This document shows positions 36,036 through 48,350 of a stretch of DNA of 64,000 nt, piece after piece. The translations under genes were made by a program, and so were the position numbers. Below the pieces are notes generated by a model. The model saw only the letters and a program-made list of their open reading frames with translations. It ran no database searches and was not told the DNA's origin. How positions within the stretch are numbered: the first letter of the stretch is position 1; every line of letters starts with the position of its first letter. Source of the DNA: a virus (Duplodnaviria > Caudoviricetes); IMG/VR virus record IMGVR_UViG_2634166429_000001, positions 1 through 64,000 of that record. One strand, 5' to 3'.

Positions 36036-36470
36036 GTGAACGCCGCGGCGCCGCTGGCATCTATCTGCCAGTGCGGCGCAGAAGGCAGCTGTGAGACAGA
36101 TGGATGGGTCCGCTTCTTCGGGCAAGACATCTGCCCTTCCTGCTGGCGTAAGCAGAAGGAGGCGGAGGCCGCCAACAGGGAGCGGCACTTCCGCGAGAAG
36201 CAGGAAGCCCAAAAGGCGTGGCGTGCCCAGAACGCCGAGGTGGCGGATTGCGCCAAGTGCAGCAGGAAGAACCTTCGCGTGCGTCTGCCGCGTGACGGTC
36301 GCCAGGTTGGCGACGGAACCCTCTACATCACGTACTGGCACAAGTCCCCGGAGACAGGCACCGACTGCCGCTCCGAGGTGGACACAGAAAACGTCCGGAT
36401 CGCCAATCGGGCCGAACGGTCCTGGCGCCGGAAGCAGACCTCACCCAGTAAGGGAGATCAGGTGACGTAG
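36036..36470 (+). CDS. Cys-rich hypothetical protein
   Basis: Several CxxC motifs; preceded by coupled short ORF 35923..36039. Confidence 0.5.
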   Translation: MNAAAPLASICQCGAEGSCETDGWVRFFGQDICPSCWRKQKEAEAANRERHFREKQEAQKAWRAQNAEVADCAKCSRKNLRVRLPRDGRQVGDGTLYITYWHKSPETGTDCRSEVDTENVRIANRAERSWRRKQTSPSKGDQVT

Positions 36471-36480
36471 TGACTTCCTG

Positions 36481-36660
36481 AGCGGGAGGTCCTGGGCCCC
36501 TTGGCGGGGGCGCTTCCTCTACCGCTGGCCGCTGGTGTTGGCGCACCGTGCGCGGCCTCGTGCAACGGCTCGGTTTGGCGACCGAGCTAAGGCCCGAACT
36601 TCGATCCGGTTTGGCGACCGGCCCGAGATTCGAGCGACCTACAGGTTCTGGCGAACCCAC
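36481..36660. ncRNA. Array of five YUGGCG-loop hairpins in rep leader (candidate antisense control locus)
   Basis: Loops start at 36501, 36538, 36575, 36611, 36648, each closed by a different stem. Confidence 0.7.
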
Positions 36661-36714
36661 CGAAGTCCCAACCGGGCCTTCGTCGTCCCCCTTGTCAGCA
36701 AGGACGGATCCATA

Positions 36715-38226
36715 GTGCAGCACGGCATGCCCTCTTGTCAGCTTGGCGACGCCCCGAAGGGCGATTCGCGAGGAATCTCCCCCCGCGCGGGCGACACCCC
36801 GTGCCCCCAGCCGTCACACAACACGCACGCCCCCAACATCGAAATCGAACCCACGTTCGACTACAGTGCTGGTCAGGCGGGTCGTGGCGGACAGCTCCGG
36901 GTGCTCGCAGCCGCCCAATGGCTGCACGCCACGACCGGCCGCATCGCCACCTGCCCCCACTCCTGGATGACCGCAGTCCACTGGGTCCACGGCAGCGGCC
37001 TCTACACGCCGTCCCGCACCCACGGCCCCAAGTGGGGACCCACCACCATCGCCATCGCGCAGGAACTCTCCGCGCTGAAGGAGTGCCGGCCCGGCATCGA
37101 CTACCTCGCCCGCAAGCTGCGCATCTCCGAGCGGACCGTCCAGTACCACCTGGGCATGCTCCGTGAGGCCGGACTCCTCGTCTACCGCAGCAAGGGCACC
37201 CGCATCCAGGGCATCGGCGGCCGCGCCTCCGTCTTCGAGCGGATCATCCCCACCGCCTTCGACGACGCCCTCGGCATCCGCACCGTCGGCGAGGGTGCAA
37301 CGCGCCGCCCCGTCGGAGCCGCCCCCGAGCACCGGACCCTCCTCGGGAAGCTCGCGAAAAAGGCCGCCCGGAAGACCCGCCGCCGTCCCTCCCGCACCCG
37401 GTCTCAGCGAGGACAGCGTTGCACCCCAATGCAGGGTGGTACCTCAACTGTTTCTTCTACCGCTCTGACTAGCTTTCCCTCTGAGGCAGAACTCGCAAGC
37501 GGGGAAGCCGAGTCACAGCCGAGGAAGTCCAACAACCGCGGGCAGATCCTCAACAACCAGCCCCACATCCCCAACCAGCTCCCCAAGAAGCCGAAGAAGC
37601 TCAACAAGGTCGGCCGCCGCTACCAGCTCGCCCGCGAACTCCAGCAGATGGTCCCCTGGCTCAACCGCGCCGCCGTCCCCCGCCTCGCATGGATCGTCCG
37701 CCACGTCGCTGACGCCGGATGGACGGCCCTCGAGGTCCAGGCCGCCGCCGAGCAGCTGCCCGTCTCCGCAGACGACGCCCGACGCCCCTCCGGACTCCTC
37801 GCCTACCGACTCGCCTCCTGCCACCTGCTCTACACCACCCCCGCCCGCCGCAAGACCCTCCTGGACGCCTGGCGCGAGTCCCGCGTAGCCGAGCAGGCCC
37901 GCCACACCGGCTACGACGAACTCACCAGCGGCCCCACGAGCCTCGCCGCCCGCCGGGAAATCGATGCCGCGTTCAACGCCATCCGCAACCGGCTCGCTGC
38001 CGACAGCCCGCCCCTCGACGACGCCCCCCTGGAGCTCGAGGACCTGTCCCGCGAAGAAGTCATCACCATGCGCACCGAAGCCTCCCGCGACCCCGGCCTA
38101 ATCCACTCCGCGATCGTCCTCCTCGGTGAACGGCAGGCCCGCCGGCTCTACACCAACCAGCTCGTCGACCAGACCCTCGCCCTCGAGGCCATCGCAGCCC
38201 GCAACCCCAACGCCCCCGCCTTCTGA
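36715..38226 (+). CDS. Replication initiator (HTH Rep)
   Basis: wHTH 'RPGIDYLARKLRISERTVQYHLGMLREAGLL'; upstream of DciA and ParAB; start uncertain (36715 or 36727). Confidence 0.7.
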   Translation: MQHGMPSCQLGDAPKGDSRGISPRAGDTPCPQPSHNTHAPNIEIEPTFDYSAGQAGRGGQLRVLAAAQWLHATTGRIATCPHSWMTAVHWVHGSGLYTPSRTHGPKWGPTTIAIAQELSALKECRPGIDYLARKLRISERTVQYHLGMLREAGLLVYRSKGTRIQGIGGRASVFERIIPTAFDDALGIRTVGEGATRRPVGAAPEHRTLLGKLAKKAARKTRRRPSRTRSQRGQRCTPMQGGTSTVSSTALTSFPSEAELASGEAESQPRKSNNRGQILNNQPHIPNQLPKKPKKLNKVGRRYQLARELQQMVPWLNRAAVPRLAWIVRHVADAGWTALEVQAAAEQLPVSADDARRPSGLLAYRLASCHLLYTTPARRKTLLDAWRESRVAEQARHTGYDELTSGPTSLAARREIDAAFNAIRNRLAADSPPLDDAPLELEDLSREEVITMRTEASRDPGLIHSAIVLLGERQARRLYTNQLVDQTLALEAIAARNPNAPAF

Positions 38227-47952: not shown

Positions 47953-48350
47953 CCCCCGACGACTACGGACACCTCTACGCCGAAGCCCACGACGAACCCG
48001 CCTTCTCCAACAGCGATGAAGGCTACGGCTGGATGGACGCCAACTGCGCCACCTGCATCCACGACAAGCCGGCCCGCCAAGGCCGCGACCACGAAGGATG
48101 CCCCCTCATCCTCATCACCCTCATGAGCAAGCGCCCCATCCAATTCCTCGACGGACCGCGAAGCCCCGAAGGCCTCTACAACATCGCCGACCAATATCGG
48201 TGCATCGAGTACCGGCACGAGAACGACGGACCCACCGACCCCCAACCCATCCCCGACCCGCCCGGACAACTCACCCTCCTGCCCCGAGAGGACTACCAGG
48301 GCCACCGCATGCTCACCCAGGCCCCGCAGGAAACGGCGGTACCCCGATGA
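47949..48350 (+). CDS. Hypothetical protein ('FSNSDEG..W...C..C')
   Basis: Coupled ORF with phage-like Cys motif. Confidence 0.6.
   Translation: MTPDDYGHLYAEAHDEPAFSNSDEGYGWMDANCATCIHDKPARQGRDHEGCPLILITLMSKRPIQFLDGPRSPEGLYNIADQYRCIEYRHENDGPTDPQPIPDPPGQLTLLPREDYQGHRMLTQAPQETAVPR

Follow-up and report, generated by a model that had tools for sequence, protein, structure and literature searches.

In a Streptomyces phage-plasmid, the leader of the replication initiation gene (rep) carries four small hairpins that display the same six-letter loop, TTGGCG (UUGGCG as RNA), at a nearly constant period. This leader lies in the 64-kb window analysed here, the first part of IMG/VR record IMGVR_UViG_2634166429_000001, which has 93,135 bases and is rated complete. 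We propose, tentatively and with rather less than an even chance of being right, that the leader is a portable RNA incompatibility cassette of Streptomyces phage-plasmids and giant conjugative plasmids, in which one loop word is repeated three to four times, is rewritten in concert or flipped to give new compatibility groups, and is recombined among reps whose products are down to 28% identical. As for its mode of action, we judge the chances to be even that the cassette is a self-contained sense/antisense kissing-loop module for copy control and incompatibility, working like the control systems of IncI, IncFII, and ColE1 plasmids. The array consists of the following elements.

36482-36525, + strand: lower stem S1 (GCGGGAGG with CCTC..CCGC) bearing hairpin H1 (36496-36511; gcccc-TTGGCG-ggggc, loop TTGGCG at 36501-36506)
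36527-36557, + strand: lower stem S2 (GGCCGC/GCGGCC) bearing hairpin H2 (36533-36548; tggtg-TTGGCG-caccg, loop TTGGCG at 36538-36543)
36567-36588, + strand: hairpin H3 (ggctcggt-TTGGCG-accgagct, loop TTGGCG at 36575-36580), followed by the conserved CTAAGGCC
36606-36621, + strand: hairpin H4 (ccggt-TTGGCG-accgg, loop TTGGCG at 36611-36616) between direct repeats GGCCCGAACTTCGA and GGCCCGAGATTCGA
36644-36657, + strand: hairpin H5, with the conserved stem GGTT(C)/(G)AACC and, in the window, the form ggtt-CTGGCG-aacc (loop from 36648)

The loops of H1 to H5 follow one another at 37, 37, 36, and 37 nt. A sequence-only reading of this DNA had described five hairpins of the UUGGCG family, and their places, stems, and spacing hold, with the number of family members reduced to four. 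H5 behaves in the opposite way to H1-H4, its stem GGTTC/GAACC being conserved among relatives and its loop differing in nearly every one. Because this loop varies freely, the CTGGCG of the window does not count as a conserved instance of the family loop and H5 is an element of another kind, whose loop may confer a private specificity. The words YTGGCG and CGCCAR occur 150 times in the window, and 13 of these occurrences are flanked by a stem of at least 4 bp (G-T pairs allowed), which is present at ~2% of all positions; the array accounts for five of the 13. The pattern TTGGCG-N28-34-TTGGCG is found three times on the + strand of the entire record, each time in the array, and twice on the - strand elsewhere, while the reversed-pattern control yielded no occurrence. 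The element contains no further cluster of TTGGCG or CGCCAA hairpins. A hairpin in a coding region, cggcc-CGCCAA-ggccg at 48070-48085, has a loop complementary to those of the array and is probably due to chance.

Leaders of related rep genes were gathered from plasmid records and from contigs of genomes, viruses, and metagenomes (designated by L numbers where they must be told apart), and 58 unique leaders had at least 250 nt of upstream sequence. When a family hairpin was defined as a Watson-Crick stem of at least 4 bp with a 6-nt loop, two or more such hairpins were present in 51 of the 58 leaders and three or more in 37. Arrays like that of the window (type A), with TTGGCG or TTGACG loops and a 37-38-nt period, made up 29 of 51 in the first unique-leader set. 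Another 17 resembled that of pZL12, the plasmid that is also phage ZL12, and had flipped loops (CGCCAA, TGCCAG, TGCCAC, or CTGCCA) spaced near 46/46/28 (type B), and the remaining five were odd. Type B loops lie on the opposite strand, with flanks oriented as in type A. Distant members of the family repeat other words within the array, including TTGCCG, TTGCAG, TTTGCAG, TTTGGCAG, and 7-nt loops ending in ACCA, and the cassette also precedes rep in plasmids of 199-892 kb. Word changes are concerted within arrays, as exemplified by TTGACG in L023, L024, L096, and L098, TTGCCG in L015, and the loops ending in ACCA in L103. Loop orientation is mixed in only 3 of the 58 leaders, and arrays with unlike loops also exist (L026, L002, L022). 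Family hairpins number from two to four, H4 or H1 being sometimes missing, and a loop-less CTCCGG/CCGGAG hairpin occurs in some relatives that lack H4.

The clearest sign of selected base pairing comes from H3. In a loop-anchored alignment of 25 distinct versions of this hairpin, 94.0% of cells were paired, compared with 77.4% in shuffles (0 of 500 as high) and 13-45% in slid controls. Six of its nine pairs have changed on both sides, and double changes affect 29 cells against an expectation of 6.9 (0 of 500 shuffles), a compensatory pattern which indicates that pairing is selected in H3. When the structure was mapped from the window onto the type A relatives, S1, H1, S2, H2, and H4 were paired in 96-100% of cells; for S1/H1 the figure was 97-100% in 29 relatives, where the pairs are almost invariant and so carry no covariation information. 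H2 shows one compensatory change, from G-C to A-U, in 2 of the 29. H5 was excluded from this comparison on account of misalignment in its columns. Flipped arrays bear different stems at the H2 position (ggta/tacc, gtgg/ccac, gatggg/cccatc) and the H4 position (tcgga/tccga, cggg/cccg, ccgga/tccgg), the orthology of H2 and H4 across types being assigned by position only. RNAalifold applied to a MAFFT alignment recovered S1, H1, S2, and H2; H3-H5 were not recovered, as their unequal stem lengths were misaligned. The sequence-only reading had argued for RNA structure rather than iterons read by Rep, and had suggested asking whether unit number and stems vary across relatives. The covariation of H3 and the occurrence of different arrays before reps that are 98-100% identical support selected structures over iterons specific to Rep. 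Both unit number (two to four family hairpins) and the H3 stems, with pairing retained, do vary.

The array is exchanged independently of the protein encoded next to it. In a phylogeny of Rep (N-terminal 260 residues), type A and type B members are interspersed. The leaders L024 (TTGACG), L038 (CGCCAA), and L027 (TGCCAG) precede Reps whose N-terminal parts are ~92% identical, and sliding windows over L024 and L027 gave 98-100% identity from +20 of rep and 38-72% in the leader. Conversely, the array of the window is 98-100% identical to that of L074, while the rep genes are 75-85% identical. The most extreme case is L093, a 239-kb conjugative plasmid of strain NBC_00873, which has a leader 82.7-87.5% identical to that of the window and a Rep only 28% identical over 371 amino acids (E 5e-30). 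Genes upstream of the cassette differ between elements, and its constant borders are a block containing a mini-open reading frame (mini-ORF) and an ATAGTGC junction, at which the recombination breakpoints fall. As array type does not follow Rep, the loops cannot be read by Rep; and with differing upstream genes and array types mixed across the phylogeny, no neighbouring protein gene accompanies the loops. Arrays of mixed loops disfavour a single loop-reading protein. A cis-encoded sense/antisense pair, on the other hand, would be swappable between reps because its partners are matched by construction.

Replicons that share a cell provide a second line of evidence. Five strains in the plasmid collection harbour two or three replicons of the cassette family, and in none of the five do co-resident replicons have the same loop set. 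NBC_00873 combines CTGGCG plus three TTGGCG loops with TTGGCG plus three TTGACG loops, and NBC_00842 pairs the same large plasmid type as NBC_00873 with four TTGACG loops. NBC_01240 carries one replicon with four TTGGCG loops, one with four TTGACG loops, and a third with AGCACCA, CTAACCA, and CACCACA; this third replicon (L103:326-410) has the same junction and places its 7-nt loops on unlike stems. In NBC_01238, four TTGGCG loops stand against flipped CTGCCA, TTCCAC, and TGCCAG, and in NBC_01525 TTGCCG, TTGCCG, TGCCAC, and TGCCAC stand against GTGACG, TTGCCG, TTGCAG, and TTGCAG, with three of four loops differing. The same G-to-A change in every loop separates the co-residents in two cases. 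L097 and L098, with leaders ~79% identical, differ by the same G-to-A change in each loop, which looks like selection on the loop word. The role in incompatibility suggested by the sequence-only reading thus fits the co-resident replicons, whose loop sets are unlike, as expected of an incompatibility determinant. An array that moves independently of Rep and without a neighbouring protein, that diversifies in its loops, and that differs between co-residents behaves as a cis-encoded sense/antisense pair predicts.

The borders of the cassette supply the remaining parts of the proposed module, with the following features.

36450-36470, + strand: Shine-Dalgarno (SD)-like AAGGGAG, then the two-codon mini-ORF GTG-ACG-TAG (36462-36470); the conserved left border
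36700-36717, + strand: rep ribosome-binding site AAGGA and GTG start (36715) within the invariant ATAGTG, the TAG stop overlapping the GTG
36712-36744, - strand: candidate promoter of a counter-transcript, CTGACA (36741-36736), 18-nt spacer, CACTAT (36717-36712); on the + strand the junction ATAGTGC-N16-TTGTCAGCTT

On the left side, an SD sequence followed by a start codon (GTG in 30 cases, ATG in nine, TTG in one), one codon (mostly ACG, ACT, or ACC, for Thr), and TAG is present in 40 of 50 unique leaders. The mini-ORF is ~245 nt upstream of rep and is kept even where the upstream gene differs. It coincides in the window with the end of the upstream 144-amino-acid ORF; in L016 an in-frame TAA just 5' of it makes it free-standing. 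Ribosome loading on the leader and ribosome drop-off are possibilities for its role. On the right side, the minus-strand motif that the sequence-only reading had proposed as an antisense promoter is invariant in 58 of 58 unique leaders, always with an 18-nt spacer, and the pattern TGACA-N17-20-ACTAT occurs once in the window against 0.02 expected. The junction overlaps Rep codons 1-10, among which Cys8 is encoded by TGT in 48 of 48 unique relatives and Leu10 by CTT in 42 of 48. In nine genes of the window (G+C content at third codon positions, 0.876), TGT accounts for 3 of the 42 Cys codons and CTT for 14 of the 245 Leu codons. Since these rare codons are retained and the four bases 5' of the rep GTG are also invariant, the constraint on the DNA or RNA extends beyond coding.

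The TAG that overlaps the rep GTG by one base occurs in all 58 leaders, a stop/start overlap as in translational coupling. An ORF with a start codon and at least 15 codons ends at ATAGTG in only 33 of the 58, and in seven fewer than 16 codons are open; no conserved ORF is evident at this stop. The only departure seen from the junction word is in L097 (2120-2135) and L099, plasmids of 177 and 127 kb, in which ATCTTG replaces ATAGTG. There the rep start would be TTG and the proposed -10 element CAAGAT, a minus-strand hexamer that retains A as its second and T as its sixth base. CCCCCTTGTCAGC is present a second time just 5' of the rep SD (repeat D4, 36687-36699 and 36730-36742) and was found only in the window, L061, and L069 among the leaders compared.

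Under the proposed mechanism, the + strand would be transcribed as the rep leader, comprising the mini-ORF, the four UUGGCG hairpins, H5 with its private loop, and a weak GTG rep start. A leftward promoter over the first ten rep codons would give rise to a counter-transcript of ~200-230 nt, predicted to begin opposite the rep ribosome-binding site and to fold into mirror hairpins with CGCCAA loops. The two RNAs would kiss loop to loop, possibly any like loop with any other, and then pair more extensively, so that some step of rep expression would be reduced in proportion to copy number. The antisense RNA would also act in trans, and the loop word would then decide the incompatibility of related replicons. 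The likeness of loops within an array may reflect such any-to-any kissing, or a reader shared in trans. The sequence-only reading had further envisaged processing into ~37-nt units and several targets; nothing indicates either.

Several observations weigh against this mechanism. Covariation rests on H3 and on the comparison across types, for type A shows next to no variation in its spacers or in the stems of H1, H2, and H4. The folding energy of the region is no better than that of shuffled sequences (z -0.72 on the + strand and -0.59 on the -), and the support for structure accordingly comes from comparison, not from thermodynamics. A search of the whole window against Rfam at the gathering score found no family, and at E up to 10 the interval 36350-36850 gave two noise matches only. 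A scan for consensus promoters and terminators found none of either in the window or in L011, L008, and L021, so that the minus-strand motif is present and constrained as proposed without being called a promoter; its CACTAT matches TATAAT at only three of six positions, which explains why it escapes the consensus scan. A loose pattern of the Streptomyces type (TTGAC.. TAnnnT) has no site in the entire window and is hence uninformative. The junction is also the start of Rep and encodes the conserved N-terminal CQL, and its conservation is in part that of coding sequence. The co-resident pairs are few, two of them share a plasmid type, and their Reps differ too. Most arrays are uniform in their loops, although a cis antisense pair does not itself require like loops. 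The loops could also have a reader, protein or RNA, whose gene is distant from the cassette.

Evidence as to which strand acts is likewise mixed. Within H3, every internal mismatch reads as A.C on the + strand and so as G.U on the - strand, in type A and type B alike, amounting to ~8-9 events as counted by eye. G.T pairs on the + strand are found in H1 and in the outer pairs of H2-H4, with three changes from G.T to Watson-Crick pairs. The minimum free energy (MFE) favours the strand bearing UUGGCG in 27 of 29 type A and 16 of 17 type B arrays. It was rejected as independent evidence of strand, as the difference stems largely from the U.G-closed loop itself. We conclude only that, as judged from the sequences, the wobble and MFE data exclude neither strand.

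Among known systems, the proposed cassette most readily recalls the IncI-alpha plasmid ColIb-P9 and the I-complex (IncB, IncK, IncZ). In these, as PMC4705826 describes, a leader stem-loop of the Rep mRNA carries GGCG, within UUGGCG, and Inc RNA carries CGCC, a short upstream ORF is involved, and rep begins at a weak GUG; the parallel drawn by the sequence-only reading is correct. The loop bases are the incompatibility determinant in the I-complex, where single-base changes have produced compatible lineages (PMC4705826; PMC10724649), and in IncK one base of the RNAI loop alters compatibility (PMC10724649). The present arrays differ in having three to four like loops rather than one, a mini-ORF that is not coupled at the rep SD, an actinomycete host, an O-like initiator, UUGGCG on the antisense strand in one-third of relatives, and a counter-transcript that is only predicted. 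A pseudoknot of the ColIb-P9 kind was sought as an exact complement of the majority loop on the same strand between -330 and +200; such a complement was found in 6 of 46 leaders, in none at a conserved place beside the rep SD. Homology of rep or the RNA to the enterobacterial family was not found, there being no Rfam match and the Rep being an O-like winged-helix protein. With no pseudoknot partner or homology, no evident leader peptide coupled to rep, and several like loops, we take the cassette to be a system that would work like those of the I-complex, not a member of it.

ColE1 RNA I/RNA II, mentioned in PMC7157519, is similar in that a multi-stem-loop antisense RNA kisses several loops and sets copy number and incompatibility. 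By sequence folding, both strands of the present array can form four to five mirror hairpins. ColE1 replicates without a Rep protein, and its system involves a primer RNA as target, three unlike loops, and the Rom protein. In the present cassette, by contrast, one word is repeated in the loops, and a rep mRNA leader would be targeted. In CopA/CopT of the IncFII plasmid R1, a kissing-loop interaction involving a U-turn-type loop in the leader controls rep, and mosaic exchange of control regions gives new incompatibility groups with similar Reps. The cassette shares with R1 the kissing-loop control of a rep leader (as proposed here), the U-turn-type loop, and the mosaic exchange; in R1, however, there are a single main kissing loop and a tap leader peptide coupled to repA, neither of which is seen here.

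The main rival to a sense/antisense pair confines the action of the hairpins to the sense rep leader or intercistronic RNA, where they would be repeated sites at which a trans factor (a multimeric RNA-binding protein or a small RNA complementary to the loops) represses or activates rep translation, with no cis antisense RNA. Such a shared reader predicts what most arrays display, namely two to four copies of one word that change in concert, and the regular period of 36-38 nt suits it as well, as does the mini-ORF with its SD, which argues that the + strand is mRNA. Yet no conserved neighbouring gene accompanies the cassette, mixed-loop arrays exist, and the flip in about one-third of relatives would turn the displayed word into its complement. 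Nor is a complementary partner apparent, the exact complements in the 6 of 46 leaders being scattered and the element having no second cluster of loop hairpins. We consider this explanation unlikely, while ranking it first among the alternatives.

An explanation at the level of DNA fits less well and appears improbable to us. In this case, the array would be a part of the origin or of copy control, with extruded hairpins or cruciforms read by Rep, by DciA with the host helicase, or by primase, in the manner of hairpin iterons or single-strand initiation signals. Its position just upstream of the initiator is the usual one for iterons in Streptomyces theta plasmids, as far as PMC3583192 describes them: pWTY27, SCP2, pFP1, and pFP11 have rep with an adjacent iteron, and RepA of pWTY27 binds a long inverted repeat for which a folded form was proposed (PMC3583192). 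The resemblance to those loci lies in having noncoding repeats beside rep in a Streptomyces plasmid. There, as that source presents them, the plasmid's own Rep reads repeats of a conserved word (GTGGGAAC/TTCCCAC), whereas here the stems vary with pairing kept. The periodic spacing would also suit DNA, as would the flipping of all hairpins, which is natural for an element that functions on either strand, and the wobble pairs, which single out no strand. Against this, the same or nearly the same Rep occurs with different words, orientations, and spacings, and a near-identical array occurs with a Rep 28% identical. No iteron-type word covaries with its cognate Rep: the stems differ between units and relatives, and the loops change without change in Rep. 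A host factor as reader would explain neither the diversification of the loops nor their unlikeness in co-residents, and stems of 4-8 bp are, from general knowledge, short for cruciform extrusion.

Features expected of an origin are likewise absent from the array, where neither an AT-rich stretch in or next to it (GC 0.63-0.71 across 36450-36750) nor a switch in GC skew was found, the skew tracking gene direction. A better candidate is situated inside rep. Among 34 unique relatives, two boxes keep their nucleotide sequence even at third codon positions, 37417-37442 being invariant and 37476-37503 highly conserved. They border the only dip in GC close to rep, to 56% at 37400-37500, which is made up of A/T-ending Ser/Thr codons. 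The first box can form a small hairpin with the loop CCCCAA. In phage lambda the origin lies within the O gene, and the internal boxes of rep are a plausible candidate for an origin here. With such a candidate within rep, the array need not be the origin.

A third explanation, which seems to us very improbable, is that the junction is conserved solely as the rep start and N-terminal peptide or as a recombination anchor, and that the hairpins tune rep translation or mRNA stability with no partner in trans. That the GTG is the rep start, that C8-Q9-L10 is invariant, and that breakpoints fall at the junction would all follow from it, and H6-like stems just 5' of the SD, seen by eye in several variants, show G.T on the + strand. 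It leaves unexplained the invariance of rare codons, the diversification of loops on conserved scaffolds, and the unlike loops of co-residents. Pairing of the UGGC loops with tRNA 3' ends (NCCA) was dropped because TTGACG and TTGCAG do not fit, and a packaging site or centromere because the stems of the cassette covary and plasmids of 199-892 kb also have it before rep.

How copy number and incompatibility are controlled in the large plasmids and phage-plasmids of Streptomyces is essentially uncharted. In what the literature searches returned, no description turned up of this cassette or of antisense or hairpin-loop control in such replicons. If the sense/antisense reading is true, the cassette would be, for Streptomyces theta replicons, the first described case of copy control by antisense RNA, and it would represent kissing-loop control in a multivalent form. 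The six-letter loop word would then predict coexistence among more than 100 sequenced replicons and explain how three replicons of the same family occur in one strain, and four loop edits would yield sets of mutually compatible vectors for Streptomyces strains that produce antibiotics. The repetition of one loop would be an unusual multivalent form of the kissing loop, and loop flipping a natural experiment that bears on which of the partners requires a U-turn loop.

The identity of the element and of its initiator rests on the following comparisons. DNA of the region matches 124 plasmid records (122 from Streptomyces and two from Kitasatospora), many of 85-93 kb, and also phage ZL12/plasmid pZL12, in which gene order is identical. 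These matches and the synteny identify the element as a pZL12-like Streptomyces phage-plasmid and the O-like protein as its Rep, encoded as follows.

36715-38226, + strand: rep, a winged-helix, lambda-O-like initiator (PHROG matches)

The protein matches PHROG 678 and 391, both 'replication initiation O-like', at 3.9e-06 and 5e-04, and its matches to the Pfam families HTH_20 and HTH_36 are under their cut-offs. Of 28 sources examined, 24 have an ATAGTG 5' of the conserved Rep core, with its GTG in frame and the reading frame open despite indels; the other four lack the ATAGTG motif or the upstream DNA. The annotation of pZL12.20c starts at the same GTG, and together these observations place the rep start at 36715 and the array within the 244-nt gap of 36471-36714. 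In two of the large plasmids, L093 and L095 (239 and 199 kb), the Rep homologue is annotated in RefSeq as 'cell wall protein' and has no Pfam match. Upstream of the gap on the + strand are genes for a C5 methyltransferase and a WhiB-like protein, small ORFs, and the 144-amino-acid ORF, which ends at 36470; downstream of it, rep (503 amino acids) is followed by genes for a DciA homologue (Pfam E 9.2e-16), a SLOG protein, ParA, and ParB.

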